Positions 1,792 through 48,669 are shown, counted from the first letter of the stretch. The stretch is 64,000 bases of DNA from an uncultured virus (IMG/VR IMGVR_UViG_3300028800_000080) (IMGVR_UViG_3300028800_000080), one strand, 5' to 3'. A program made the numbers and translations. The notes: generated from the sequence alone by a model not told the origin.

Positions 1792-2375
1792 TAATTTTAG
1801 AAGGACCGGACTGTTCCGGCAAGACTACACTCGCACAGTTTCTGTGTGGGAAACTGAGCGCTCATTTCGAGCACATTGGTCTGCCCCCGCCTGGAGTAAG
1901 GCACTGGGACATCGTACGGGACAAGCTGTTAACTTGCCCCCTTAACACCGTCTACGACAGGATGATTGTCGGCAGCTACGTCTTTAAGCAGTTCAAGGCT
2001 GACAAGCACAACTTCAACGGCGTAACGGGGTCTGAGTTGACCTCTTGGCAAGAGCTGATGGAGGCGCTCTACCCGAAGGCGCTCATCATCGACTGTTTCG
2101 CACCGTATACGACGTTGCTCAGACGTTTCAAAGACAGGGGTGACGACTACGTCACAGAGAATGAGTTAGGTCTGAGTGCCCGGCACTATGACGATGTCTG
2201 GCTGCATTGGGCCGAGTTCAATAGCAACATCCTAATCTTCAATAGCGAAACGATGACCCTCGAAAGTTTCTACCGGGAGAACCTGAGCGCGATAGAGCTA
2301 GCTCTGTCGTCCACCGCAACGCCCAACGCAGCAATGCGGAACGTAATCAAAAATCACATGGGAGATATTAGTTGA
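1788..2375 (+). CDS. dNMP/thymidylate kinase-like P-loop kinase
   Basis: IILEGPDCSGKTT Walker A, VYDR motif and RGDDY lid; adjacent to a TS-family gene. Confidence 0.85.
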   Translation: MIILEGPDCSGKTTLAQFLCGKLSAHFEHIGLPPPGVRHWDIVRDKLLTCPLNTVYDRMIVGSYVFKQFKADKHNFNGVTGSELTSWQELMEALYPKALIIDCFAPYTTLLRRFKDRGDDYVTENELGLSARHYDDVWLHWAEFNSNILIFNSETMTLESFYRENLSAIELALSSTATPNAAMRNVIKNHMGDIS

Positions 2376-3316
2376 ACGTCAGAATAGACGCCGCCGACGC
2401 CGCAGAAGCGTACCAACAGCTGTTAGCTTCGCTGCTGCAAACAAACGTAGCTAGCGTGCCCGGTATCGCAGTTGAGCAGATTAACACTACCGTGTCTATC
2501 TGGCACCCGGAGCGCTTGCTGATAGGCTCCACGGCGCGCAAGTTCAACTACCGTTCGCAAATCAGCGAGGGGTTGTGGAACATGACGAATACGGATGCGA
2601 TTGACTTTCTCTGTCGCTACAACTCAACCATTCCGAGGTTCGTGGAAGACCAAGAACCGGCCCAAAGACACCGCGCTACGTGGGCGTACGGTCCCTACAT
2701 CCACAATCAGTTCCATCGCGTAGTTGATGAGTTGATTCAGGACCCCGACTCACGTCGTGCTCGCATCAGCATCCAGTATAGCGGAGAGAGGGGCACACCA
2801 CCGTGTCTCAGCTACCTCCAATGGTTCGTACGTGGAGGCAAGCTCATCCAGGTAACGCATATGCGTAGCAACGACGCATGGCGTGGCTTCCCTCTGGACA
2901 TCGTCCAGTTTGGGCTGATGGGTCACATCGTTGCTGCGGCACTGGGTGTACCGTTCTCGCTGCTCATCCACCAGGCCGACAGTATGCACATCTACATTCC
3001 TGACCTCGCACACGTGATGGAATTCATTGAGGGTCGACACACGCCTTACACGCTGCCCTACGTAGGGCCACATGCGCTGGGCACCGCTATTCGAGGCGAC
3101 GTGCTAGCGTTCGTGGAGAAATACGGGCACCGCGACCAAACTTGTCTCAAGGTGTGGAACCCCGAAGAAGGCGCTCACACGAGTCAAAAGTTGGATTACA
3201 GCCGGGTCCCGGGGCTGGAAAGTTACGCAGCCCTACTTACGGGCGACTACCTTAGCCCGAATTTTGAGGCCCCCTATGCTAATTTGAAGATGGGCGACTA
3301 CGGCATTGGCTGGTAG
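2372..3316 (+). CDS. Thymidylate synthase-family pyrimidine (hydroxy)methyltransferase
   Basis: AYG, DPDSRRA, catalytic PPC, MRSNDAWRGFPLD and SMHIY motifs. Confidence 0.85.
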   Translation: MNVRIDAADAAEAYQQLLASLLQTNVASVPGIAVEQINTTVSIWHPERLLIGSTARKFNYRSQISEGLWNMTNTDAIDFLCRYNSTIPRFVEDQEPAQRHRATWAYGPYIHNQFHRVVDELIQDPDSRRARISIQYSGERGTPPCLSYLQWFVRGGKLIQVTHMRSNDAWRGFPLDIVQFGLMGHIVAAALGVPFSLLIHQADSMHIYIPDLAHVMEFIEGRHTPYTLPYVGPHALGTAIRGDVLAFVEKYGHRDQTCLKVWNPEEGAHTSQKLDYSRVPGLESYAALLTGDYLSPNFEAPYANLKMGDYGIGW

Positions 3317-9416: not shown

Positions 9417-10388
9417 GTGGTTTCAGCGATGAACCAAGAACACTGGGAAGGCTTTTGGAGGTACGTCTATGAGCGGCAAGCGATTTGGCACAAAAGGTTC
9501 GTCCTCAAGCAAGACCCCCCTTGGACAGAGGACCCGGTACTCCAAGCGTATTCCTTCACTAACGCTTATCGAGAGCTTGACCGCGGCACTATTCATTGTC
9601 TGCGTCATGTTATCACCTCGCCTACCCGACCTAATCTTACGTATCCTGAGTTACTATGCCGGATAGTCGCCTACCGCTTCTTTAACCGCACCGAGGTATG
9701 GGACGAGTGTACAGGTCCGGTACTGGACAATCCTTTACGTGACTACAACGGTCGCTTAGCCAAGCATACGCTCGAACCTAGAATTAGAACCTACGCAGAC
9801 AGCGGGCGACCCGCCTTCACGGGTGCGTTTATGGTTGCCTCCTATTCCATGTTCCCGGGGCGCGACAAGATAGACCGCATATGCTACTTTATTGAGTGGG
9901 TGTTCGATAACTGTAACTACGCCTACCGTGAGCTGCTCAACTGTCAGAACCCCCGCGAAGCGCACAAGTACATCATGTCGTGGCCAGGTGTGGGCCCGTT
10001 CAATGCCTACGAGTTTCTGTCCGATATGTACTATGTTCCCGGCATGCTGCCCTGGACAGAGGATGACTGGGCGAATCCAGGCCCCGGTGCCAAGCGTGGC
10101 ATCAAGCTCATCTACCCGGAGCGCAAGGACTACGAACAATGCATCTACGACCTGCGTGACGCGCAATACGACAACTTGCCTGAGTGGCATGAAATAGCCC
10201 TCAGTCTAGGGTGCGAGGCAGTCACTGCAAGCTACCTAAACAACGCAGGTCGGCAAGAGTACCGAGCTGTGAGCTTAGGACCCAAACCGCTCACCATGCG
10301 CAACATCGAGCACAATTTATGCGAGTACAGCAAATACGCTCGCGGTCGTGCGCGAGTGAAATTCAAACCCAGGACTACGCCAGCGTGA
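9417..10388 (+). CDS. 5-hmdU DNA kinase helical domain (aGPT-Pplase1 family), DNA hypermodification enzyme
   Basis: ERQAIW..R....PPWTEDPVL..YSFTNAYRELDRGT, HhH-like GVGPFNAYE..SD, NPGPGA.RG and IEHNLCEYSKY; likely ATG at 9429. Confidence 0.8.
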   Translation: MVSAMNQEHWEGFWRYVYERQAIWHKRFVLKQDPPWTEDPVLQAYSFTNAYRELDRGTIHCLRHVITSPTRPNLTYPELLCRIVAYRFFNRTEVWDECTGPVLDNPLRDYNGRLAKHTLEPRIRTYADSGRPAFTGAFMVASYSMFPGRDKIDRICYFIEWVFDNCNYAYRELLNCQNPREAHKYIMSWPGVGPFNAYEFLSDMYYVPGMLPWTEDDWANPGPGAKRGIKLIYPERKDYEQCIYDLRDAQYDNLPEWHEIALSLGCEAVTASYLNNAGRQEYRAVSLGPKPLTMRNIEHNLCEYSKYARGRARVKFKPRTTPA

Positions 10389-13907: not shown

Positions 13908-14246
13908 TCATCCGCCAAACGCTGGTCCATCGTCATCAGGCTCTCCAACAGGAGGCGGGCGTGGGACGAGTGGGGGTAGTCCCGAGTCAACTCGCGGGCT
14001 GAGCGCAGGCAAGGCTGGAGGCTGTTCAAACTCCCAATCAGCAATGTGCGCTTCCGTAGCAGTCGGGTAAGAGCGGACTGGAAGAATTGTTTTACGTTGT
14101 CCATGTTTCCTGTAGTAGCAATCAATGTGATGTAGACGATACTCATTGTCCCTTACCTTCTCTACCAGGTACCAACAGCCACGGAGTATCGTAGTGTGAC
14201 AGTCGGTACATATGCGGCTATACCGCGCTCGCTTGGTTATCTGCAT
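13908..14246 (-). CDS. Hypothetical Zn-binding protein (alternative frame 13847..14146 possible)
   Basis: CTDC..HIDC pattern, starting from MQITK. Confidence 0.4.
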   Translation of the reverse strand: MQITKRARYSRICTDCHTTILRGCWYLVEKVRDNEYRLHHIDCYYRKHGQRKTILPVRSYPTATEAHIADWEFEQPPALPALSPRVDSGLPPLVPRPPPVGEPDDDGPAFGG

Positions 14247-14892
14247 ACTTGAGCGACTTGATGATTGAGCGCACAGTTGCTGGGTACCATTTCTGACCCC
14301 GGCAGGCTCTAGGGTAGCGCTCATTCAACAGGGCTGCAACAACAGCGTTGCTGTAGCCCGCTTCATGCCAGTCTTTGAGGTCCAGAATGGCTAACTGCTC
14401 ACCTTCGTCAGGTACGATAACGTCACCCACTCGCTGGTAGCCGTAGGGGATAGACCCGTACACATTGTTATTCTTGCGCTTGTAAGCTAGGGCATTCGTG
14501 GTGCGCTCCACCGTGACCTCGCGCTCCCATTGCGCTACCGTAGCCAGGATGTTGACCACGAGCCGTCCAGAGGCGGACTGCGTGTCCAGCGACTCTGATA
14601 CGGACACTATCTGATAGCCCTTCTCCAACATCAGACCTAGGTCCCGCACCGACCGAGTAAGACGGTCCAGCTTGAAGACCATAACAGTGTCTCCGGGGTT
14701 GAGAAGGGCAAGCATCTCGGTCATCCGTGGCCGGTCAAGGTTGCGTCCGCTGGCGTCCCGGTCGATGAACGTGCCGGTTATCTTGCGGTCGGTAGCCTCA
14801 GCGTAGGCGTTCACCCGGCGTATCTGGTCCTCCACGGACACGGACTTGTCGTGGTCCCGGCTGATGCGAGCGTAGGCGAAGGTGAGGGCCAT
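14218..14892 (-). CDS. Serine recombinase (resolvase/invertase family with short C-terminal recombinase segment)
   Basis: YARIS catalytic Ser, DRDASG..RP, KLDRLTRS and PYGY. Confidence 0.9.
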   Translation of the reverse strand: MALTFAYARISRDHDKSVSVEDQIRRVNAYAEATDRKITGTFIDRDASGRNLDRPRMTEMLALLNPGDTVMVFKLDRLTRSVRDLGLMLEKGYQIVSVSESLDTQSASGRLVVNILATVAQWEREVTVERTTNALAYKRKNNNVYGSIPYGYQRVGDVIVPDEGEQLAILDLKDWHEAGYSNAVVAALLNERYPRACRGQKWYPATVRSIIKSLKYADNQASAV

Positions 14893-15937: not shown

Positions 15938-16525
15938 TCACAGTATGCCTTGCTCCTTTGCAAAGATGAGTAGTTCCATGATGCTGATGGGCTGGTAGTG
16001 CCACACGTCTACGCCAACGTTGACGCAGCCGTCCTTGACCTTCCACAGGTCGTGCACGTGGCCGCACAGCGGCAGGTAGAGCAGCTCACCCTTCTCTATC
16101 AGGTCCCGGTAGAGAGGCAGAGTGGGCTGGCGGACGTAGCCCCGGCTATCCAGTTCATTGTTGACGGGGATATGGTTCATCTCCACGAGGACGTTCTTTG
16201 TGCCCTCTGCGTTGCGGGTGATGGTCGAGCACACGCGGTCATAGACCTCATGGAAACCCCGGTTGAGCATCTTAGCCACGTTCGGGTCATGGTTGCCCCG
16301 TACGAGGACCCGCTTACCGTTTAAGCGCTCTACGCAGCTGCGGGTGTACTCGGCACCCTTCATCGCTACATCGCCCAAGTGGTAGACGGTGTCGCCTGGC
16401 TCCACGATGGCGTTCCAGTGGGCAATCAGGGCCTCATCCATCTCCGCAACTGTCTCCCAAGGACGTTTGCAGTAGGGGATGATGTTGGCGTGACCGAAAT
16501 GGGTGTCGCTGGTGAAGTAAATCAT
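15938..16525 (-). CDS. Calcineurin-like metallophosphoesterase
   Basis: SDTHFGH, LGD, GNHD, HIP and GHVH motifs. Confidence 0.9.
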   Translation of the reverse strand: MIYFTSDTHFGHANIIPYCKRPWETVAEMDEALIAHWNAIVEPGDTVYHLGDVAMKGAEYTRSCVERLNGKRVLVRGNHDPNVAKMLNRGFHEVYDRVCSTITRNAEGTKNVLVEMNHIPVNNELDSRGYVRQPTLPLYRDLIEKGELLYLPLCGHVHDLWKVKDGCVNVGVDVWHYQPISIMELLIFAKEQGIL

Positions 16526-21132: not shown

Positions 21133-22602
21133 TTAGTCTGCATCCTCCTGGCCCTTCGGGGGGCTGGTGACGAAGGTTAGGTGCTCGGTTGCCCGGGTGA
21201 TGGCCACGTAGTTGAGGTTCGTCTCCTGGACGTACTCCCAGTCGCGCTGGTTCTTCCAGGTGAGGGGGAGCAGCTCAGGCTTCAGGATGAACACGCGGGG
21301 GTTCTCCAGACCCTTGGCGCGGTGGACGGTGCTGAGGAGGACTGAGGCGCGTCCGTCGCTGAACAGCGACTCAATCTCAGAGCAGAAGCCAGCTACGCTG
21401 TCGGTGGCGAAAGCGTGCCAGCAAGCCAGGATACCGGCCACCTTGTCTTGGTGGGCTTGGAGAGCTGACTCGTTGTGCTTGCGGCGAAGGATTTTAGTGG
21501 TCTCGGCATCAGCCCACATTCCCAGTGCGTTCTCATCGAACACGCCAGAGTTCATCTTGGCTGCTTTCTTGACGATGCCCGTCAGGTTGGCTGCGATGTC
21601 GCGTCCACGCACACGGGCGGGAATCTTGTTGCGAATCATCTTGATGCAAGCGCTGATGAGTGGTGCAGTGGTGCGGCACAGAATCATGTCGCCTTCACCC
21701 GCCTGCTCGAACAGCTGGGCGTAGGGGATGTTGTCCACGGTGCCCTCGGGGCAGTTGGGCCGGTCCTGAATGTCCGGCACGATTTGGCGAGCCAGGTCCA
21801 ACACGGAGGAGGGGCAGCGGTAGCAGATGGACAGAGGCAGCTCCGTGGCGTCCAGCGTGGTCTTGATGTTGTTGAACGACTCACAGTCAGCGCCAGCAAA
21901 CCCGTAGATGCTCTGGTTGGGGTCGCCCACGAACAGCATCCGACCACCCTTGGCCTGGGCCTTCAGCACGATGCCCAGCTGGGCTGCGCTGAGGTCCTGC
22001 GCTTCATCGCAGAGGACGAAGGAGTAGGACGAAGCGAGTGAGTAGTTCTCCACAGCCGGTATCCACAGCATGTCCGTGTAGTCGATGGTGCCCTGGGCCG
22101 CGAACATGCGACCATTCTGCAGTGCTAGCGGAAGGTTCGCTAGCATCGACGGCTGCACGTCCTCAATGCCGTAGTGCTCGATGACCAGGTTAACTGCCTC
22201 TTGGTTGCTCACATCCGTCAGGGTGCAGCGGACGAGGTCAATCAGCTTCACAAAGGTGTTCTGGGCTGCACGGTCCTCAGAGTAGAAGGTCTGAGCAATG
22301 TCCCGGTACTTGTGCTCCTGGACGTTCACACGCTTGGGGCGGATTGCCTTAGCGATGGCGCCGTAGCCGAGGCCATGGACCGTCTTGACGGTGGCCTTCG
22401 TGCCGACCTTGCGCTGAAGCTCATCAGCGATGTGCTTGTTGAACGCTACGAGGATGACATCACCGAAGATGAACTGGAGCAGCCAGATGAGGGTGCTGGT
22501 CTTGCCGCTACCTGCTTTGGCGTTGAGGACTGCGTGACCGCGGCCATTCTTGACCCACGCTGCGACTGCTTCCTGGAGCTGACTCGGTACAAACATTTTC
22601 AT
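21133..22602 (-). CDS. UvrD/Rep-like SF1 helicase
   Basis: AKAGSGKT, DEAQD, GDPNQSIYGFAGA, STVHRAKGLE and YVAITRA. Confidence 0.92.
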   Translation of the reverse strand: MKMFVPSQLQEAVAAWVKNGRGHAVLNAKAGSGKTSTLIWLLQFIFGDVILVAFNKHIADELQRKVGTKATVKTVHGLGYGAIAKAIRPKRVNVQEHKYRDIAQTFYSEDRAAQNTFVKLIDLVRCTLTDVSNQEAVNLVIEHYGIEDVQPSMLANLPLALQNGRMFAAQGTIDYTDMLWIPAVENYSLASSYSFVLCDEAQDLSAAQLGIVLKAQAKGGRMLFVGDPNQSIYGFAGADCESFNNIKTTLDATELPLSICYRCPSSVLDLARQIVPDIQDRPNCPEGTVDNIPYAQLFEQAGEGDMILCRTTAPLISACIKMIRNKIPARVRGRDIAANLTGIVKKAAKMNSGVFDENALGMWADAETTKILRRKHNESALQAHQDKVAGILACWHAFATDSVAGFCSEIESLFSDGRASVLLSTVHRAKGLENPRVFILKPELLPLTWKNQRDWEYVQETNLNYVAITRATEHLTFVTSPPKGQEDAD

Positions 22603-22682: not shown

Positions 22683-22786
22683 TGCGTGAAAGAATCTTGC
22701 GCTACGACAGATTCCCACACGAAATCGAACGTACGTTCTGTGCGGTGGAATTTGGTTCACCAAGCGCTGTGGGAATGTAGGGGGGG

Positions 22787-22815
22787 TTGTTTTCCGTCAC
22801 CGCATCGGCTATGAT
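22787..22815 (+). promoter_or_regulatory. Promoter TTGTTT-N17-TATGAT
   Basis: Divergent partner of the 22651 promoter, with a similar ATCGGC-TAT context. Confidence 0.55.
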
Positions 22816-23366
22816 TGTCGGTAACTCTCACGCTTGAAAGGAGTTGGATTCTGATGGTTGCTAAGATGTTACTGGTCGCCTGGTGCGTCGTTGTTGGGTT
22901 GGCTATCTACACGGTGGACGTACGAGTGATGGCGCGCATTCATGCGCAAGACCGCTGGCTCAACCCGAACGCACAGGGTGACGACTCTGCGTGTACGCTG
23001 GCGCGGACTTGTTGAAGCTTCTGTGCCAGGCTTGTGGGCAGACCTGTGCGCACTTTTGTGGTGTGTGCGGCTGCTCTGTCCACAGTGCTAGCAGTTGCTC
23101 CGAGAAACGTAAGCAGTCAAGTGGGCGAGATGCGCACTATTTGGTGTGTGCATCGTGCGTGGTTGCTGGGCACTGAGCCTGGGCTACTCAGCTAAAGGTG
23201 AGTGCTCAAGGCCCGCCTGTCACAAGAAACGAGTGCCGGATGGTAGGAAGAAATGCGCCTACCATCTACGTTTGGACGTAGAGTACCGACGTTTGCAACG
23301 TGAAGGCGGATTGTGCTCGCATTGCTACGATAGACGTGGACCAGGCGAGCATCGCTCGTGGTGTCG

Positions 23367-23457
23367 CACCAGAACCAGTCACCAGAACCAGTCACCAGAA
23401 CCAGTCACCAGAACCAGTCACCAGAACCAGTCACCAGAACCAGTCACCAGAACCAGC
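23367..23457 (+). repeat. Tandem array, 7 x 13 bp CACCAGAACCAGT (last copy ends in C)
   Basis: Read directly; no spacers. Confidence 0.95.
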
Positions 23458-23667
23458 CCCTAAATCACACTAACAAGCGTCCGCCCGAGGGGTCGCTTGG
23501 TTGACGAGGGCGTGGGTGGGCGACCGCTCGCTCTCGAAAGGACGAAGTGGGTGGGCGGTCGCCTCGTTTTTCGGTCGGCGGCTCGGAGAGGCGCGAAGCG
23601 CTCCGCGAACCGGAACCCCCCGATTCTCTCGCGAATCGGCTCGGAAGGGAAGCGGGAGTTTCTCCTT

Positions 23668-23871
23668 TCGAACGGACGTTCGAGCGTGGCGGACGAAGCG
23701 TTTTTCGGTCGTGTGGGAAATGCCCTTCTTTTGACCGGAAACGGCCCTTCCTTCGCTTCCGGTCCGACCTCCCACCCTCTCTCCCAAAATCGTTTTTTCG
23801 ACCGATTCCCACACGAAAGCGAACGGACGTTCGCGTTTCCGCGCTTGGTGAATCTCGCGAACGGACGTTCG
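23668..23871. promoter_or_regulatory. Three CGAAC-GGAC-GTTCG palindromes (23669-82, 23820-33, 23858-71), LexA/SOS-box-like
   Basis: Identical copies matching GAAC-N4-GTTC; a fourth variant lies at 22726-22739. Confidence 0.6.
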
Positions 23872-23915
23872 CTGGAAAAGAATTCGAAAAGGAGGAAAAA
23901 AACCTCTCTCTCCTC

Positions 23916-23944
23916 TCGACTTTTCGGCTCGGAAAGCGGATAAT
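23916..23944 (+). promoter_or_regulatory. Island promoter TCGACT-N17-GATAAT with upstream A-tracts
   Basis: Exact 17-bp spacer; the -10 holds one of very few TA steps in the island; 46 bp upstream of the first ATG. Confidence 0.7.
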
Positions 23945-23990
23945 CGGAGAAGGACCGGAATCCTTCCGGCCCCTCTCGAAAGGACTCGAA

Positions 23991-24314
23991 ATGACTGACG
24001 AAATGACCGTCGAAACGGCCCTCGCGAACCTTCGTTCCGCCTCGCGAAACTTCGCGCTCGACTCCGAAAACCTCGAACGATTTGAAGAGGTCGCTTTCCG
24101 TCGCCTCCTCTCCTCGCTCGGAAAAGACGTTTGGAACGAGGAGCGCGGAGCGAAAGCGAAGCGAAACGTCGCGATTCTCGTTCTTCGCGAGGCGATTCGC
24201 TCGCTCGAATCCGCCGTCGCCCTCGAAACGGTGACGGAAAACTTCTCTCTGGACGGGTCGCTCCTCCGTAATTTCGGACTCGTCCCCCCCTCTTTCGGGG
24301 AGGACTCGAAATGA
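23991..24314 (+). CDS. Island gene A, 107-aa hypothetical (no H/Q/Y)
   Basis: GAAAGGACTCGAA-ATG RBS; TGA stop overlaps the next ATG. Confidence 0.8.
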   Translation: MTDEMTVETALANLRSASRNFALDSENLERFEEVAFRRLLSSLGKDVWNEERGAKAKRNVAILVLREAIRSLESAVALETVTENFSLDGSLLRNFGLVPPSFGEDSK

Positions 24315-25048
24315 CTCTCGGAAACCCGGTTCTCGACTCCGTTTTCTCGCGCTCGGCGGGTCGCGAAACTTTCTCCTCCGTTTTCGCCCGCGAATTTGGC
24401 TCCCCGGTCGGACTCGACTCGGACGGACCGGACCTCGCTCGGACGTTCGCTCGGGCCTCTCGCGCTTTCCTCGAAGCTTTCCCGGACGTTGACCTCTTGG
24501 AATTCTCGATGGAAACCGGAATTTCGCTCGACCCCGACGCTTGGTTCGAGTCCTCCGCGACTCGCGAAACCCCGTTCGGAATTTCGACCGGCTCCTTCGT
24601 TTGCCCCGCGAATCCGTGCGGGGCCGGTCCCCGCTCCGACCGCTGGGACGAAGCGGAATTCCGGGAGTCGGTCGAAAATGACCTCGCCTTCCTCCTCCTC
24701 GCTCTCGCGGAGAAGAGAAAATCCGCTCGACTCGACGGCGCTTCGAAATCGCGCTTCGAAATGATGAAGGAAATCGAAGCGAATTTCGAGGCGGGAAAAA
24801 AGCGAGTGGATGACCTCTTCTTCGCTTCGCTCCTCGCGACCCGCGAAGCGCTCGCTTCGGCTCTCTCGGACCTCCCCGGACCGTCCGACCCCTCGCTCGC
24901 TCTCCCCCCGTTCTCGACGGTCGAAAAACTTCTCCGCTCGGTCGAAAACGTCGTGGACGCGGTGGACCTCCCGGAAATCGCTCGGACGCGCCTCTCGCTC
25001 CTCCGCTCGCTCGTTCTTGACCTTTCGGCCCGGGGGAAGCTTTCGTGA
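24311..25048 (+). CDS. Island gene B, 245-aa hypothetical (no H/Q/Y)
   Basis: GGAGGACTCGAA-ATG; ATGA coupling; globular-looking composition. Confidence 0.8.
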   Translation: MTLGNPVLDSVFSRSAGRETFSSVFAREFGSPVGLDSDGPDLARTFARASRAFLEAFPDVDLLEFSMETGISLDPDAWFESSATRETPFGISTGSFVCPANPCGAGPRSDRWDEAEFRESVENDLAFLLLALAEKRKSARLDGASKSRFEMMKEIEANFEAGKKRVDDLFFASLLATREALASALSDLPGPSDPSLALPPFSTVEKLLRSVENVVDAVDLPEIARTRLSLLRSLVLDLSARGKLS

Positions 25049-25191
25049 CCGCCTCCGACCTCGCTCGCTCGTTCGAGGAGCGCTCCGCGCTCCTCCCCCC
25101 CGTCCTTCTCGCCTTCCGTGCCCGGGGCGTCCGTCGCTCGAAAGCGACCCGTCGCCTCTCCTCCCTTCTCTCTCGAAAGGACTCGAAATGA
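25045..25191 (+). CDS. Island gene C, 48-aa basic peptide (no H/Q/Y)
   Basis: GTGA/ATGA coupling at both ends; MTASDLARSFEERSALLPPVLLAFRARGVRRSKATRRLSSLLSRKDSK. Confidence 0.55.
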   Translation: MTASDLARSFEERSALLPPVLLAFRARGVRRSKATRRLSSLLSRKDSK

Positions 25192-25847
25192 CTCTCTCCG
25201 ACGCTCTCGCGAACCTCCGTTCCTTCGCCTTCGAGGCGGCTCGCCTCTCGGACGCCCCCGCCCCCGTTCTCGCTTCGGTCGAAGGCGAGGGGTCGCTCGC
25301 GGAACGGGTCGCTCGCTTCCTCTTCGTCGCGAATTCGGACGAAGGCCCGGAACCGTTCGCCTTCTCGTGTGGCGGCGATGGCGGGTGGGGCTCGTTCTTC
25401 TCGGCGGTCGGCGTCGTTTCGGGGCTGACCCCGGACGGCGAGGACCCCGCTTCGGCGGGCGACGAACCGCCCTTCGCTCCCCTCGTCTTTCTCGACGGCT
25501 CGGCGCTCGCTCCGACCTCCGAGGAAGCGGACGGAACGCTGGTTGTCCTTCGCGGACCGGCTTCGACTCTCGCGGAGCGAGCGATTCTCGCTCGGGAAAT
25601 GGGCTCCGAGGAGGATTTCTTCGACCGAGTGGGCTGTTTCTCGGCTCCCGGTTTCGAGGAGAACGACGAGCGAGCGCTCCCGACCCTTTTCGAGGACGGC
25701 TCCGTTCTCGCGGACCTCGGAGAAATGTGTGGGCGAGAGGGCGCTTGGTTGACTCTCTCGGCTTGGTTCCTCGGAGAGGAGGCGACCTTCGCGGAAGCGA
25801 CGGACGACCGGGGGACCTCCCTTCTCTCTCGAAAGGACTCGAAATGA
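25188..25847 (+). CDS. Island gene D, 219-aa acidic hypothetical (no H/Q/Y)
   Basis: GAAAGGACTCGAA-ATG; N-terminal ALANLRS shared with gene A. Confidence 0.8.
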   Translation: MTLSDALANLRSFAFEAARLSDAPAPVLASVEGEGSLAERVARFLFVANSDEGPEPFAFSCGGDGGWGSFFSAVGVVSGLTPDGEDPASAGDEPPFAPLVFLDGSALAPTSEEADGTLVVLRGPASTLAERAILAREMGSEEDFFDRVGCFSAPGFEENDERALPTLFEDGSVLADLGEMCGREGAWLTLSAWFLGEEATFAEATDDRGTSLLSRKDSK

Positions 25848-26788
25848 CTGATTCGACTTTCCGCGCTCGAATCGAGGGCTCTCTCGCTCTCGCCTTCGCG
25901 AAGGCGAACCCGAATGACCGTCGCGAACGTCGCGAATTCCCGGACGGCTCCGCGCTCTCGCCTCGCGGAATTCGAGGCGAAGCTTTCTCCGTTTGGATGA
26001 ACGGCTGGTTGGACTTCGGCTCGGTGACCGAGGAGGAAATCCTCGGCTCGGAGGCGGCTCTCGCCGTCCTCTCGGGCTCTCTCGGGCTCTCGGACGGACT
26101 CCGCTCGACCTCGTTCCCGGACGGCTCCTCCGCTCGACGGAACGATGACGGCTCGGCGCTCGTTTGGCTGCCTGGCCTCCTCGGGGGGAAGCGCTTCGAC
26201 GCGGCTTTCGCTCCGCTTCCGACCCCTCGCTTGACCCCTCGAAGCGAGTGGGCGACCGCTTCCGACCTCCCCGAGTGGGAGAGAGAGCTTCGACGGAGCG
26301 CTCGGAACCGGGCGGCTCTTTTGACGGCGGCTCGGGCTCGCTTCGAACGTCTCCCGAATGGCGACGTTCGCGCTTCGGTCCCGGGAGAGTCGCGGACTTT
26401 CTCCTGGGAAAAAGAGGATTTTGTCGGACGCGGCTCTCGCTCGGGAACCGGACCCGCGCTCTCGGCGGTTCTCGATTCGGTCGCCTTCGCTTGGTCGCGT
26501 GGCGCGTGGGGAATCGGGCTCGTGGTTGGCGACGGACCGGGAGTCGCGCTCGAAACGTCCGCCTCGATTCCCGGTCGCTCGGATTGGTTGAACCTCTCGA
26601 TTGCTCGCTCGGCGAACGGAACCTGGTCGCTTGTCGGAGAGCGCGAGGCGGCGGAACGCTTCGGCGTCTGGACGGACGATGGCTTCCTTCCCGCCGACCC
26701 GTCGCTCGTTCTCTCGGTCGCGGACGCGGAGAGGCGCGACGAAATCGAAGCGGAGAATGGGAGGCGGATTCGCGAAGCGCTCGGCTGA
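25844..26788 (+). CDS. Island gene E, 314-aa hypothetical (no H/Q/Y)
   Basis: GAAAGGACTCGAA-ATG; Trp-rich; internal FPDGS repeats. Confidence 0.8.
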   Translation: MTDSTFRARIEGSLALAFAKANPNDRRERREFPDGSALSPRGIRGEAFSVWMNGWLDFGSVTEEEILGSEAALAVLSGSLGLSDGLRSTSFPDGSSARRNDDGSALVWLPGLLGGKRFDAAFAPLPTPRLTPRSEWATASDLPEWERELRRSARNRAALLTAARARFERLPNGDVRASVPGESRTFSWEKEDFVGRGSRSGTGPALSAVLDSVAFAWSRGAWGIGLVVGDGPGVALETSASIPGRSDWLNLSIARSANGTWSLVGEREAAERFGVWTDDGFLPADPSLVLSVADAERRDEIEAENGRRIREALG

Positions 26789-26807
26789 CTTGGTTGGGGG
26801 GTCCGGG

Positions 26808-26845
26808 AGAGGGGTCGCGCTTCGGTGCGGCTCCTCTTTTCTTTT
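26808..26845 (+). terminator. Intrinsic terminator of the island operon
   Basis: AGAGGGGTCGCGC-TTCG-GTGCGGCTCCTCT followed by TTTCTTTT. Confidence 0.85.
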
Positions 26846-26952
26846 GACCGTCGGAGCGCCTCCGGGCGCTTCGCGCGTCGTTGATGGGGGAAAGAGTCGG
26901 GGGCGGCTCCGAACGCGCTGAGAAGAGGCTCGGAGGCCCGGGAAATGGTAGC

Positions 26953-27330
26953 GAGGGGAAAGTTGAGGGGGAAAGTTTCCCCGCTCGGAAAGGACTCGGG
27001 TGTTCTTTCTTCGCTCGGTCGTGTGGGAACGGGGTCGCGAAAAGAGAACCGAGGTCGCTTCCGGGGAGAACGGGGAGAACGGGGAGTGATTCTCGGGCTC
27101 GGGCTCGCTCTCTTAGAGAGGAGAGAAGCTTTTTTCGGAAAACCGCTTGGTTGGTAACGAAAGAAGCGAGCGAGAGGGGTCGCGAGGCGAGAGGAACCCG
27201 AGAATAACTCCCCGTTCTCCCCGTTCTCCCCGGAAGCGACCCTGGTCTCTTTCTTCGTGTGGGAGGGTGAGGAGAAAGGACCGTCCGGTTCTTTCCGAAG
27301 CGGGGAAAGTTTCCCCTTGACTTTCCCCTC
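26953..27330. repeat. Large imperfect inverted repeat (~380 bp)
   Basis: Outer arms from 26953 and to 27330; inner arms 27041-27097 and 27197-27252 contain tandem GGGGAGAAC / GTTCTCCCC units. Confidence 0.9.
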
Positions 27331-27702
27331 CCCCGTGGGAGAGAGCGAGCGAGTGGGCTGGTTGCCCGGCTGATGGGGTGGGTGGGTGAATAGAGAAGGG
27401 GCCGGTTGGTAGTGGGTGGTAGGTCCCCACCGTGTGAACATGCTATAGTCACTACGCGTAGTTTCGCCTGCGGCATCAACCCAGCAACTGCGCACACACG
27501 CCCAAGGCACGTTTCAGCTGCGCGCCGAAGCTAATAGAGGAGACAATGGACGACGACGCGCAGTTCTGGTTTGAGGCGCATCACTTCAGGGATATGCCCT
27601 TCAGGGCTATTCCTGAAGAACATAAACAAGCAGTTATTGAACTGCTTGTGGATTTGTTCCTACGCGGGAGTGGTTTACTCGTTAACGGGGAATAATTAGA
27701 AT

Positions 27703-30764: not shown

Positions 30765-31007
30765 ATGGACATCCTCGTCTGGCTCAGTTGGATAGGAAAC
30801 CCCCTTGCGTTGCTTGGCTCCTATATGATAGGCGGCGGCAACCTCAAAGGCTGGTGGGCCTATCTCGCAGCGGACTTTTGCCTCATCGGGCTACCTATCC
30901 AGCACCGTCTCTGGTCGCTGGCGGTGTTGTTCACTCTGTTCATTGCGACAGGTCTACGCGGCCTCTACAAGTCAGGACAGTTGAAGTGGCCAAGCTTTAC
31001 ATCTTAA
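30765..31007 (+). CDS. Small membrane protein, PnuC-like half-transporter
   Basis: Three hydrophobic helices with W..G..LALLG.Y....N.KGW.....D and GLY. Confidence 0.5.
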   Translation: MDILVWLSWIGNPLALLGSYMIGGGNLKGWWAYLAADFCLIGLPIQHRLWSLAVLFTLFIATGLRGLYKSGQLKWPSFTS

Positions 31008-31444
31008 GAGGCGCACCCGGCTCAGGCAAGAGCACTTTTGCCCATCACCTGTTGAATGCGGGCCTAGCAGACAAGCACTTTGAAGCCGACCTGTGGTTCT
31101 ACGGTAAGAACGGCTACAAGTGGGACCCCGCATTACTGCAGGACGCCCACTACTGGTGCTTCCTCAGCACGCACGCGGCCTTGCGCGGCGGCTACAATGT
31201 TGTTGTAGCCAATTGCTTTGCGCGACGCATGCAAATACAGGATTACGTAGACCTCGGTTACGAAACTGAAGTGATTGAGCTGAGGGGCAAACACCCTAAC
31301 GTTCATGGTGTCCCGCCCCAGAAAGTCGAACACATTCGTCGTATCATGGAGGAGTGGCCCGGTGAGCAAAGCGTCAATAGAGGTAAAAGGTCAAAAGTAC
31401 ATAGTCCCGGTTATGCGGGGCCTGAGTATTCGCAAGTTAGCTAA
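30986..31444 (+). CDS. P-loop kinase (AAA_33 / polynucleotide kinase-like)
   Basis: LYILRGAPGSGKST, EADLWF, DAH.WC and NVHGVP. Confidence 0.8.
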   Translation: MAKLYILRGAPGSGKSTFAHHLLNAGLADKHFEADLWFYGKNGYKWDPALLQDAHYWCFLSTHAALRGGYNVVVANCFARRMQIQDYVDLGYETEVIELRGKHPNVHGVPPQKVEHIRRIMEEWPGEQSVNRGKRSKVHSPGYAGPEYSQVS

Positions 31445-35323: not shown

Positions 35324-36472
35324 TTGAGCACACTCGCGGTAAAAGTTGAGCGCATTCGTGACATTCAACCCCACGGTAACGCAGACCGGCTTGAGATTGC
35401 CACCGTATTAGGATGGCAGTGTGTCGTGCAGAAGGGTGCCTTTAAGAAGGGCGACCTTTGCGTCTATTTCCCCATCGACAGCATTCTCCCGCAGACGGTT
35501 GAGGACGCCATCTTTGGCGCAGACTCCAAAATCAAACTGGCCAAGCATCGCATCCGCGCCATCAAGCTTCGTGGGGCTATTAGCCAGGGATTGGCGACCG
35601 AGCCTAAGACGCTGATTGGGCTGGGCGCGGGCATCATCAACGCTAAAGAAGGTACGGACCTAACTGCGGTGCTAGGCGTCACCAAGTACGAGCCACCCCC
35701 GCCGCGTACGCAGGGCATGTCTAACCTGCAAAAGTCGTGGCGCAAGAAGAACCCGCACTTTCACGAGTACACGGACATCGAAAACGCCAAAAACTACCCC
35801 GACACCTTTGCGCCAGGTGAGCGTGTGCTCGTATCGGAGAAGGTCCATGGCACGAATTTCCGTGCCGGTTGGGTGCCCTACGAGCCAGATAACCTCTGGA
35901 AGAAGTTACTCACTTGGCTGCATCTCGCGCCTAAGTACGAGTTTGTCTTCGGCAGTCGCAAGGTTCAGTTACAAGACCCCGGTCGGGTAGCGGGTACTGG
36001 CTTCTACGAACGTCAAGCGAATGGCGAAGGCCCCCCACCGGGTAACGTGTACGCTGAAGCGGTGCGCAAGTACAACCTTCGCAAGATTCCGCTGGGCTAC
36101 GTTGTGTATGGTGAGATTTACGGGTCCGGCATTCAGAAGGGCTACACTTACGGGTGTAAGCAGGGCGAGCATAAGGTTGCTTTCTTCGACCTGATGATTA
36201 ATGGCCAGTACCAGGATGACTACGAGTTTCGCCGGTGGGCCACGATTGTGGGGCTACCCGTTGTACCGCAGTTGTGGTCAGGTAAGTACGAGTCGCTGGA
36301 CCAGATGAAGGCGCTTACGGTGGGCGACAGCGTGCTGTGCCACGAGCAACCCTGTATGGAAGGCGTCGTAGTGAAGCCTGAGCACGAGCGCTGGGACCCG
36401 TCCTTAGGCCGCGTCATTCTCAAGGTCGTCAGTGACCAGTATTTGCTGGGCGACCAGAGCGAATTCCACTGA
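35324..36472 (+). CDS. RNA ligase (Rnl2/DRB0094-like) with N-terminal OB-type domain
   Basis: H.NADRLE, LRGAISQG, motif I SEKVHGTN, YGEIYG, FFD and EGVVVK. Confidence 0.88.
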   Translation: MSTLAVKVERIRDIQPHGNADRLEIATVLGWQCVVQKGAFKKGDLCVYFPIDSILPQTVEDAIFGADSKIKLAKHRIRAIKLRGAISQGLATEPKTLIGLGAGIINAKEGTDLTAVLGVTKYEPPPPRTQGMSNLQKSWRKKNPHFHEYTDIENAKNYPDTFAPGERVLVSEKVHGTNFRAGWVPYEPDNLWKKLLTWLHLAPKYEFVFGSRKVQLQDPGRVAGTGFYERQANGEGPPPGNVYAEAVRKYNLRKIPLGYVVYGEIYGSGIQKGYTYGCKQGEHKVAFFDLMINGQYQDDYEFRRWATIVGLPVVPQLWSGKYESLDQMKALTVGDSVLCHEQPCMEGVVVKPEHERWDPSLGRVILKVVSDQYLLGDQSEFH

Positions 36473-36899: not shown

Positions 36900-37092
36900 G
36901 AAAGTGGCTACGGACAGTAGCATGTTCTTCAAGGCCCCGGTGGAACCGGAATTCACTCTGGTATTGCTGCTGAAAGGCGGCGGTGACGAGAGTGTCTGCG
37001 GCTTCAAGTCTAACGCAGCCGCAGAAGAGCGTTTTTACCGCGAGTATTCTAACGCACCGAATGTGGCGGGGTTCAAGGTTCTTGAAGTTTGA
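36892..37092 (+). CDS. Hypothetical protein
   Basis: GGGGAG RBS; coupled to the next gene. Confidence 0.5.
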   Translation: MAEKVATDSSMFFKAPVEPEFTLVLLLKGGGDESVCGFKSNAAAEERFYREYSNAPNVAGFKVLEV

Positions 37093-37940
37093 CCCCAGTT
37101 GAGCAGTTTGGTCGCCAGCTGATTCAGAATGGCGACCTAGACCCGGCGTACATCGTAGCATTTGACGCCGAGTTAAAGCCTGACCTGTTGCGTAAGTGGG
37201 TATTCCTCTACTCTTGGTTCATACATGCGGGAGTTACCAGCCACTTAGCAGCGCAGGACCACCCCTACGCGGCAGCGATGAGCGAGTTGAAGATACTGCC
37301 GCGCTCACCTGAGCGGCGTCACTTTAGGGCTGCTAATGCGGTGCGAACGCTAGAGTACCTCAAGACCAAGTCACCGGATGCTTGGCTCAAGTACTGGTTC
37401 GGACAAGACACGACGTACGCCCCCATCGAGAAGCGTATCCGTGAGGTGCCCGGCTTTGGCGCCTGGACGGCGACTAAAATCATCGACATGGGTGAGATGC
37501 TGCTGGGCTATTCCGTGGACCCGCCAGACCCCTATACGTGGGAGCTATACAAGACCCCCGCCGAAGGGGCTAAAATGATTGCCTCGCCAGGTGAATCCCA
37601 AGGCGATACACTGGTACGGTTGGCCTCACTCCTATCGGACCTAACCGTGCCCCCGTTGCATATCCGCCACGTGGACGTGCGCGAGGCTGAAACGGTGCTG
37701 TGCCGGTTCAAAGAATTCACGACAGGCACGTATCAACCGGGTAAGGAAATACGTACTACCGTAAATGAATTGCTGTGGCGTCCTAACTGGATTGCCAAAC
37801 GCATGCTCGAAAGGAGCAGTCTATGGTCTTTCAAATCCGAGGGAACCACGGCTCAGGTAAGTCTACGACAATTCGATGCCTCATTGACAACTACGGAGTA
37901 CGGGATGTTATCAAAGCCTCCGACCTGGTCAACGGCCTAG
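37089..37940 (+). CDS. Amino acid:DNA transferase-like (aGPT-Pplase2 family) hypermodification enzyme
   Basis: GDLDPAY, ERRHFR, HhH-like GFGAWTATKIIDM and EAETVLCRFK..G.Y.PGK. Confidence 0.75.
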   Translation: MTPVEQFGRQLIQNGDLDPAYIVAFDAELKPDLLRKWVFLYSWFIHAGVTSHLAAQDHPYAAAMSELKILPRSPERRHFRAANAVRTLEYLKTKSPDAWLKYWFGQDTTYAPIEKRIREVPGFGAWTATKIIDMGEMLLGYSVDPPDPYTWELYKTPAEGAKMIASPGESQGDTLVRLASLLSDLTVPPLHIRHVDVREAETVLCRFKEFTTGTYQPGKEIRTTVNELLWRPNWIAKRMLERSSLWSFKSEGTTAQVSLRQFDASLTTTEYGMLSKPPTWSTA

Positions 37941-48015: not shown

Positions 48016-48329
48016 CGGATGAGGAATATGATACGCGGAGAGATGAGCTTCACAAGATTCAGCGGGACGCCGTGCTCGAAGCCGAGGCCCAGTATCAAGC
48101 AGACCTTCTCACCGACCCCGAAGGATGGGAACGTGTCGCCGGTCTCAACGGACCTGCTCGCGGGGGCGAACCCGGCAACGTAGGGGACCGCCTAATATCT
48201 TACATGTTTAAGTGGCGCGACGTAGACGCACTTAATCGCCTGAATCGTAGTCTAGCTACGATTGCACAGAGGATTTCAAAGTTAGCAACGGAGTTGGATG
48301 ATGAGTATTACAGCAGTCGTGGCGGATGA
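47994..48329 (+). CDS. Hypothetical protein
   Basis: ORF tiling. Confidence 0.5.
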   Translation: MRIAVHLTDEEYDTRRDELHKIQRDAVLEAEAQYQADLLTDPEGWERVAGLNGPARGGEPGNVGDRLISYMFKWRDVDALNRLNRSLATIAQRISKLATELDDEYYSSRGG

Positions 48330-48669
48330 TTCCGACCCCGAGTTACAGCAAATCATACCCATCCTTAAACGGATAGGCGTGACGGTGCTAGCCTCATTTC
48401 GTGACGGACTCTCCGCTTGGAAGTATATCCAGAGCCTGGAGACACCGCCTGATTTGCTCGTGACTGATTATGTGATGCCTCACATGTCAGGCGCGGAATT
48501 AGCTACCCACGTCAAGAATGCAAGATTAGCGACTAGAGTTCTCATGTGGTCCTCAGCGGGGCAGAAGGGTGCGGCTTATGGCGACCCTGACTCCATCCAT
48601 TGCGTGAGGATTAAGCCCTATTTACGACGTGAGACAGAGTCAGCCTTGAGGGAGCTAGGATTCAAGTAG
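48298..48669 (+). CDS. Stand-alone response-regulator receiver (CheY-like) domain
   Basis: VVADD, PDLLVTDYVMPHMSG, WSS and IKPY. Confidence 0.85.
   Translation: MMSITAVVADDSDPELQQIIPILKRIGVTVLASFRDGLSAWKYIQSLETPPDLLVTDYVMPHMSGAELATHVKNARLATRVLMWSSAGQKGAAYGDPDSIHCVRIKPYLRRETESALRELGFK

Follow-up and report, generated by a model that had tools for sequence, protein, structure and literature searches.

An operon without CA and almost without TA on its coding strand in an uncultured soil phage that carries thymidine hypermodification genes

The DNA analysed here is a stretch of 64,000 nucleotides (nt) from an uncultured virus (IMG/VR IMGVR_UViG_3300028800_000080), hereafter the window, with positions counted from its first letter. 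Between 23475 and 27427 lies an island in which the dinucleotide CA is practically excluded from the + strand and TA nearly so. The most economical rule describing it is the avoidance of T followed by a purine (T-purine) on both strands, complete on the - strand, which is the template of the operon encoded there, and weaker, at about 2.5-fold, on the coding strand. Neither a chimera nor an insert, the island is natural, and the exclusion of CA and TA is maintained by present-day purifying selection. It differs from motif avoidance and from regional hypermutation in being local, absolute, strand-specific and functional, and in costing three amino acids. By its layout, it appears to be an accessory cassette complete in itself, in which a regulatory region precedes a coupled operon of five genes and a long 3' RNA hairpin follows. 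Our preferred reading, to which we give a probability of roughly 0.4, is that the template strand of this cassette cannot be hypermodified.

23475..27427, + strand: the island, with only four CA and nine TA on the + strand; the - strand is nearly without T-purine
23773..23813, + strand: the island's only CA-containing patch, with four CA (23773, 23785, 23810 and 23812)

The CA-free gap on the + strand spans 3,616 nt between flanking CAs at 23812 and 27428, where 178 CA are expected over the island. A preliminary description of this DNA had reported no CA from 23814 to 27427, which the strand-specific counts bear out; it had also called the interval 23477-27427 dinucleotide-free, and there the four CAs of the patch stand against it. 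Overall, the exclusion is more marked than described there. The second-longest CA gap of the window is in the island too (23474-23773, 299 nt), and outside it no gap on the + strand exceeds 126 nt. The TA positions given earlier were right. There are nine on the + strand (23941, 24269, 26949, 27114, 27155, 27205, 27391, 27410 and 27420), with a TA-free gap of 2,680 nt from 24269 to 26949. Observed counts and those expected from the island's own base composition are 0 and 178 for CA, 9 and 116 for TA, and 111 and 239 for TG. As the preliminary description had it, TG is reduced (about 2.5-fold) yet present, and the depletion extends to the non-coding parts.

When the window is cut into 1-kb bins, CA numbers 48-90 per kb throughout, except in the bins covering 24001-27000, where it is 0; there, TA falls to 0-1, TG goes down to 21-37, and the counts of CG and TC are doubled. 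In the 5' non-coding, coding and 3' non-coding parts of the island, respectively, the odds ratios are 0.14, 0 and 0 for CA (1.07 in the rest of the window), 0.05, 0.01 and 0.31 for TA (0.84) and 0.43, 0.43 and 0.63 for TG (1.14). CpG is not avoided but enriched, 1.1-1.5-fold. Set beside the rest of the window, CG, TC, GA and AA are raised 1.5-2.4-fold, with odds ratios of 1.6-1.8 for TC and 1.5-2.1 for GA. G+C is 0.61-0.67 in the island versus about 0.56 around it. The rest of the genome had been said to use CA and TA freely, and it does: the longest stretch without both is 59 nt, and in each of the 48 other open reading frames (ORFs) examined the coding strand has 48-89 CA per kb, none being depleted. 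There is no second island in the 6.5 kb past the right end of the window, as read in a near-identical record. The TGs that remain on the + strand tend to pair up 4 nt apart (21 pairs versus about 4 expected) and occur mainly in TGGTTG (9 copies, about 4.5-fold over the rest of the window) and TGGGTG (5 copies), while TGGTA(A/G) contains 4 of the 9 TAs.

The + strand of the island encodes five translationally coupled genes.

23991..24314, + strand: gene A, 107 amino acids (aa); ATG after AAAGGACTCGAA; its stop overlaps the next start (ATGA); 5 natural variants
24311..25048, + strand: gene B, 245 aa; an accessory gene that some members of the population lack
25045..25191, + strand: gene C, 48 aa; GTG start
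25188..25847, + strand: gene D, 219 aa; very acidic; 12 natural variants
25844..26788, + strand: gene E, 314 aa; residues 175-312 homologous to a 221-aa metagenomic protein

All five stop codons are TGA. Three of the four junctions are ATGA overlaps, and between B and C the overlap is GTGA, the start codon of C being GTG; C is possibly nothing more than a coupling ORF. A near-identical ribosome-binding block ...CTCGAAAGGACTCGAAATGAC recurs before A, B, D and E. Because CA and TA are excluded, His, Gln and Tyr are never used (0 in 933 codons, versus 9.9% of the 9,857 codons of the other phage genes), and the five proteins are written in an alphabet of 17 amino acids. We know of no other natural operon that drops three amino acids owing to a forbidden dinucleotide in DNA or RNA. 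Codons end overwhelmingly in C or G, NCG codons are dominant (TCG makes up 63 of the 104 Ser codons), and Arg, Glu, Asp, Ala and Gly are frequent at low Lys, Asn, Ile and Met. The - strand, having no TG and almost no TA, is without stop and NTG start codons in any frame, which produces two spurious and meaningless minus-strand ORFs of 1,345 and 1,346 aa.

The TG depletion reaches synonymous sites (CTG is used for 4 of 111 Leu codons, versus 263 of 852 in other genes) and codon junctions (24 T|G observed versus 61.7 expected). In the 3' non-coding region, CA is missing from both arms of a 53-nt, 92%-complementary stem, at the price of mismatches or G.U pairs: an arm with TG is faced by a mismatched or G.U partner instead of CA, and the fold thus contains 31 G.U pairs on the + strand versus 4 on the - strand. 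Since it covers non-coding flanks, codon junctions and hairpin arms, the constraint acts on DNA or RNA and not on codons alone, in agreement with the selection beyond codons suggested by the preliminary description. Selection on tRNA or codons alone is ruled out by the junctions and the non-coding DNA, and DNA flexibility or H-NS evasion alone by their not being strand-specific; avoidance of antisense ORFs was rejected for want of a rationale. The island does not have the pattern of restriction-site avoidance, as it has 0 CA versus 111 TG on the same strand and contains the palindromes TCGA, AAGCTT and GAATTC. Nor does it have that of hypermutation resembling repeat-induced point mutation (RIP): the coupled ORFs, their ribosome-binding sites and the hairpin have been preserved, the two strands are unequally affected, and E has a homologue.

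Natural variation indicates that the rule is still enforced. The polymorphisms of the island comprise 27 sites, 20 from three contigs and 7 from metagenome runs. None of the 27 creates an allele with a pyrimidine before A (YA), versus 6.7 expected when the same mutation types are placed at random island sites (P=8e-5), and all 11 polymorphic sites with an A allele are preceded by a purine. His, Gln and Tyr are absent from all 29 natural variant proteins and fragments, including a variant of B with a divergent C-terminus of about 45 residues. The single-nucleotide polymorphisms (SNPs) from the contigs are non-synonymous in 13 of 20 cases, a share that would be expected for proteins that look like fast-evolving accessory ones.

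The island was found in independent data. Rhizosphere metagenome runs containing the stretch number 19 among those listed, and 12 of these hold at least half of its sampled words; all 19 are from 2019, possibly from one campaign, and one may be the source of this DNA. No RNA dataset is among the 19. The preliminary description had held that borders not bridged by sequence data would point to a chimera. The right border is bridged by contigs of four non-source runs (one contig measures 40,494 nt), the left border by contigs of three of these four, and both by three JGI metagenome contigs that are 98.8-99.7% identical to the window and in which the island has 0 CA. Exact island proteins are recorded in JGI, ENA and Logan assemblies, with 4-12 variants each and on contigs of up to 73,613 nt. 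Forms with and without gene B coexist, the deletion being clean and keeping the reading-frame coupling; its joint (24307>25039) was found in three of the four runs examined, and depth drops over B in runs X2, X3 and X9. A second indel lies to the left of the island, where 134 nt at 22703-22838 are swapped for 657 bases in contig L004 and in runs X3 and X9. When the island and its left flank were compared by blastn with 50,697 phage records, nothing matched in near or in distant mode.

Gene E is, from its homology, a real protein. Residues 175-312 are 44% identical to P0002, an unrelated metagenomic protein of 221 aa (E=1.5e-12), and an exhaustive HMMER scan of 1.84 billion representative proteins returned E's own cluster, this one distant homologue and nothing else. 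P0002 contains nine Tyr and one Gln, and two of the four aligned Tyr are Arg in E; the family itself is thus normal, and it is the island's copy that has been purged. The five proteins have no match with a meaningful E-value in Pfam, PHROG, NCBIfam or PADLOC. Matches to DrmC (E=0.033) and Tcp10_C (below the cut-off) were discounted, and a DUF1963 assignment of D in the ESM Atlas (0.88), which Pfam did not confirm, is a lead only; the Atlas gave nothing for B. AlphaFold2 models were unusable, with a pLDDT (predicted local distance difference test) of 37.5 for E from a five-row alignment and of 35.2 for D from the single sequence. In IMG/VR, no relatives of E or of the ribosome-binding-site repeat were found. 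D and A have paralogous N-termini (ALANLRS). In frame with A, and behind a copy of the operon's ribosome-binding block, lies a GTG at 23547 (23547-23990), and a longer form of A, of 255 aa, is conceivable, though the extra part looks non-coding.

The operon is framed by non-coding elements that follow the same rule, and a repeat array of opposite polarity adjoins the left border.

23367..23457, no strand assigned: 13-bp tandem repeat CACCAGAACCAGT in seven copies; adjoins the island's left border; iteron-like
23668..23872, no strand assigned: 14-bp palindrome CGAACGGACGTTCG in three copies (at 23669, 23820 and 23858); operator-like; no T-purine on either strand
23916..23944, + strand: sigma-70-like site, the sole match in the island (TCGACT, 17-nt spacer, GATAAT)
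26789..27427, + strand: 3' non-coding region of about 640 nt, CA-free and hyperstructured

The CACCAGAACCAGT array is dense in CA and has no TG or TA on the + strand, which makes the - strand dense in TG, and it lies in a run of 99 nt (23362-23461) that is free of T-purine on the + strand. Its copy number is polymorphic, with seven copies here and six in contigs L003 and L004. Another element, CGTGTGGGA, is found on the + strand at 23710, 27020 and 27256, and an inverted copy in the patch at 23773..23813 supplies two of the four CAs. The scan for sigma-70-like sites returned 2 sites versus 0.5 expected in shuffles. The TA at 23941 falls inside the -10 hexamer, and the -35 hexamer (TCGACT, versus TTGACA) has no TG. 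Structure is not unusual in the 5' non-coding part (z = -1.5). The 3' region folds at -367 kcal/mol, with z = -10.8 relative to dinucleotide shuffles, none of 20 of which was as stable, and the fold of the + strand RNA is more stable than that of the - strand by 67 kcal/mol. It consists of a nested hairpin (26953-27330) that has a terminator-like hairpin and T-run (27108-27134) at its apex, and G-tracts follow at 27366-27394. Rfam gave only a chance match to a long non-coding RNA (E=0.16, far under the gathering score), and no tRNA genes were found.

The window has the gene content of a myovirus-type phage (terminase, sheath and baseplate J genes), with PolA, RNR and a primase-helicase; a DnaG-type zinc-ribbon/Toprim primase is encoded as well. 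PolA is less than 30% identical to everything in the 50,697 phage records, and on this measure the phage is far from any sequenced one. It carries the following genes for thymidine modification, together with a class of promoters that the island does not use.

9417..10388, + strand: 5-hydroxymethyldeoxyuridine (5-hmdU) DNA kinase (PF18723, E=3.4e-53, 181 bits versus a cut-off of 25)
37089..37940, + strand: amino acid:DNA transferase, aGPT-Pplase (PF18724, E=9.3e-9, 35.8 bits versus a cut-off of 26.2)
2372..3316, + strand: thymidylate-synthase-family enzyme, candidate dUMP hydroxymethylase (PF00303, E=4.4e-16)
15692 (-), 17424 (-), 17473 (+), 28247 (+), 30463 (+) and 30725 (+): six near-identical, conserved sigma-70-like promoters

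Both the kinase and the transferase that characterise thymidine-hypermodifying phages of the 5-hmdU pathway are therefore present, as expected from the description of this virus as a DNA-hypermodifying phage. The matches to PF00303 and PolA would fit a hydroxymethylase as well as a methylase. Relatives of the kinase occur in 251 phage records, and as a single query against IMG/VR it found none. The six promoters share an A-rich upstream element, CCTATTGAACTC, a 15-nt spacing, TATAAT or TATAGT, and bases resembling TAGGGTG; they are probably the phage's own early promoters. They are rich in T-purine and drive genes of normal CA and TA content.

We propose that the phage would replace T by 5-hmdU, and that its kinase and transferase would turn part of this base into a bulky, charged one. 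The specificity of the kinase would set which T can be modified; it may act on T in the T-purine context, TG above all, so that the template strand of the cassette would stay un-hypermodified in the virion. If the modified base hinders the host polymerase, the cassette could be read from injected, fully modified DNA and its operon might be expressed first, while all other genes would have to await replicated DNA with less modification, or put up with being read more slowly. A broader version, which we offer more tentatively, takes phage hypermodification as a built-in clock: adducts at T-purine would hold back the injected genome, and the cassette, as a sequence-encoded epigenetic blank, would yield the first or only products made from virion DNA. 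We favour a rule set on DNA because a single T-centred rule covers CA, TA and TG, because it ignores RNA pairing, because it includes the promoter, the operators and about 440 nt of upstream DNA, and because the phage owns enzymes that modify T.

Published work bears on the two premises taken as established in the preliminary description. Excerpts of Flodman et al. (PMC6449724) support the first, that modification depends on dinucleotide context: for phages M6, ViI and phiW-14 a TG/TC context is inferred from resistant restriction sites, and the M6 kinase modifies TG. This context also includes TC, which is enriched here. The second, that template adducts impede RNA polymerase, agrees with Gracias et al. 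(PMC11550810), where phage-type charged or bulky 5-substituted uracils, among them the aminomethyl and dihydroxypentyl forms, are strong inhibitors of T7 RNA polymerase if the template strand carries them and have a neutral or mildly positive effect in the sense strand; that enzyme is not a bacterial one. The asymmetry of the island is of this kind. About half of the thymines of this genome stand before a purine, which is compatible, as a loose consistency only, with the statement in an excerpt of PMC8989533 that up to half of thymidines are modified. The excerpts of PMC8989533 and PMC5889632 give no modification motif, the latter stating that such motifs are not yet known.

Several observations weigh against an unmodifiable template. 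TC, part of the published context, is enriched in the island on both strands. The 48 undepleted ORFs, and the six promoters with their normal genes, imply that T-purine in a template is no general obstacle. The strand asymmetry persists in 23475-23772 (0 CA versus 11 TG), upstream of the only recognisable promoter, so that an unseen upstream start has to be postulated. The inhibition was measured with T7 RNA polymerase and not with the bacterial enzyme, and the same excerpt (PMC11550810) cites earlier work in which 5-hydroxymethyluracil stimulated the E. coli polymerase. Finally, the survey of other phages for similar islands called for by the preliminary description found none: neither in the whole genomes of phiW-14, Vi01, SP10, Ab18 and PhiJL001 and 50 of the 61.8 kb of LKO4, nor in 80 IMG/VR loci around 5-HMUDK genes (1.28 Mb), nor in three further kinase-bearing contigs. 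The best gap score in the six reference hypermodifying phages is 12.4, versus 221 in the island. Dinucleotide gaps in L049, L090 and L067, three of the contigs screened, turned out to be poly-acidic coding repeats, and a 283-nt CA gap in G003 has ordinary composition; none is an island. These poly-acidic Asp/Glu repeats, encoded by kinase-bearing viral contigs that are unrelated to one another, are long, are broken by Lys-rich patches and lie less than 10 kb from the kinase gene (L049 6150-6650, L090 1-490 and L067 5400-6160).

The selection could instead act on the messenger RNA (mRNA); this is the foremost competing reading, which we consider possible but doubtful. The message would have been purged of CpA, UpA and partly UpG to survive an endoribonuclease recognising short motifs, be it a host abortive-infection toxin of the MazF/Kid type (ACA, UAC, UAH), a two-base cutter or a host-shutoff RNase of the phage; the 3' hairpin would guard it against exonucleases, and five counter-defence or takeover proteins would be made while other messages are destroyed. 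The rule is indeed strand-specific, and its extent matches that of a polycistronic operon with its two untranslated regions. The operon looks designed for robust expression: its ribosome-binding sites are strong and identical, its genes are coupled through ATGA, its codons end in C or G, and the 3' structure reaches z = -10.8. Furthermore, the TA at 23941 belongs to the -10 box, ahead of where transcription likely starts, and would be absent from the RNA; between the predicted start (about 23951) and 27134 there are 0 CA and 3 TA, in keeping with a motif-free message. Genes of the RNA-repair type (RNA ligase, AAA_33 kinase) suggest hosts that attack RNA. On the other hand, CA is missing even from long perfect stems, out of reach of a single-strand RNase, most of the tolerated UAs of the 3' region sit unpaired, and the depletion runs through the promoter and about 440 nt upstream of this only promoter-like site. 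The enrichment of CpG shows that the agent is no general pyrimidine-purine cutter, we know of no bacterial toxin specific for YpA, and no RNase family was found among the 62 ORFs of the window (Pfam) or among 9 ORFs (PADLOC/NCBIfam). Excerpts of PMC13107127 report both dinucleotide-specific MazF enzymes (U|GN) and ACA-less mRNAs that escape MazF in an engineered single-protein-production system, which lends this explanation some support. An unlikely alternative is another directional process on single-stranded or translocating DNA, such as the absence of primase start sites from the - strand, a strand-specific nuclease or ADP-ribosyltransferase acting on single-stranded DNA, or directional DNA entry, or else import from a genome where such a process operates. 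DnaG-type primases initiate at CTG, CTA or TTA, and the phage encodes a primase of this type. Such a process or import would fit the sharp borders, the higher G+C, a promoter class unlike the phage's six, orphan proteins and a gene content that varies in B, and the iteron-like 13-bp array (x7) of opposite polarity stands at the left border. Yet no donor genome of such composition was found, the lone homologue of E in 1.84 billion proteins is normal, the SNP test shows that the constraint is kept up in the present genome, and the benefit of a primer-free template strand is not evident.

We regard a purely mutational origin as very improbable. A local hypermutation of T>C at T-purine (A>G at YA on the + strand) in a fast-evolving accessory region, RIP-like in spirit, would end in a composition such as this one (CG doubled, NCG codons, proteins rich in Arg and poor in Lys), and the Tyr-to-Arg differences between P0002 and E and the high non-synonymous share (13/20) are in line with it. 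However, every start, stop, ribosome-binding site and ATGA overlap has survived, as has a hairpin of 380 nt, E is still 44% identical to its homologue, and only one of the two strands shows a total loss, the other a partial one. Of 14 C/T polymorphisms, 4 fall at TG/CG, no enrichment over the roughly 4.6 expected, and new A alleles arise only after purines, which requires selection or an implausibly exact bias. In our view, A>G transitions at YA are the route by which the purge proceeded rather than what drove it. That the island is an assembly chimera, a synthetic insert or a systematic misreading of modified bases is hardly credible. So absolute an exclusion is unusual in natural sequence, but the 19 runs, the bridged borders, the protein variants from three data sources and the two structural forms all speak for a natural one; moreover, a base templating as C in vitro would do likewise in vivo, and the rest of the genome reads normally.

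No description of a strand-specific dinucleotide-free operon was found in the literature, and the island shares features with several known systems without matching any. The kinase and transferase of M6, ViI, phiW-14 and SP10 are also here, along with the thymidylate-synthase-family enzyme, and the context published for those phages includes TG; a modification-free region written in the sequence, as proposed for the island, is not described for them, and the context implied here is T-purine rather than TG/TC. As in the single-protein-production mRNAs, a motif has been written out of the message, and the island is without every ACA, UAC and UAH; that system is engineered, synonymous and concerns one trinucleotide, whereas the island loses two dinucleotides over 4 kb, non-coding parts included, and three amino acids. 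Avoidance of restriction sites and palindromes by phages also reflects selection against short DNA words, but it is genome-wide, statistical and strand-symmetric, and the island is local, absolute and strand-specific. T4 Alc acts on cytosine DNA, and base J (glucosylated hydroxymethyluracil) blocks RNA polymerase II in kinetoplastids. In both, as in the work with T7 RNA polymerase, a modified template pyrimidine decides on the progress of the polymerase, which is what we propose for the island; with Alc and base J the modification is placed or read by proteins, and here the DNA sequence itself would decide which sites are modifiable. The first-step-transfer pre-early region of T5 is a short block of takeover genes beside large repeats and palindromes, an arrangement that resembles the island. 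To our knowledge, there is no compositional exclusion in T5.

If the rule is set on DNA, the context of a hypermodification enzyme would have been revealed by sequence alone, and hypermodified thymine would carry a transcriptional cost that the phage solves by writing an unmodifiable template. This would bear on how infection starts in hypermodified phages and on engineered phage DNA that is restriction-proof yet expressible. If it is set on RNA, the island would be a natural counterpart of motif-free mRNAs and would imply that soil bacteria or the phage possess a YpA-directed RNase still to be discovered. On either reading, five proteins of 17 amino acids under measurable selection provide a clean natural experiment.

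The island is flanked by a leftward block that ends in a UvrD-type helicase gene (21133-22602) and, on the other side, by rightward small genes. The helicase has one relative, 31% identical, in an unrelated contig of 34% G+C without an island, and none in five kinase-related contigs. Elsewhere in the window, an RNA ligase (35324-36472, PHA02142 OB fold and PF09414), an AAA_33 kinase-like protein (30788-31444) and a calcineurin-like phosphoesterase (15938-16525) could, from their families, form an RNA (tRNA) repair set. Two of the six promoters are divergent, 50 nt apart, near the minimum of the cumulative GC skew. A response-regulator receiver protein (48298-48669, PF00072, E=6.8e-11) is encoded among the structural genes, and a serine recombinase (14218-14892, resolvase N-terminal domain, E=2.1e-32) lies in a leftward, early-looking block of this otherwise lytic-looking myovirus.

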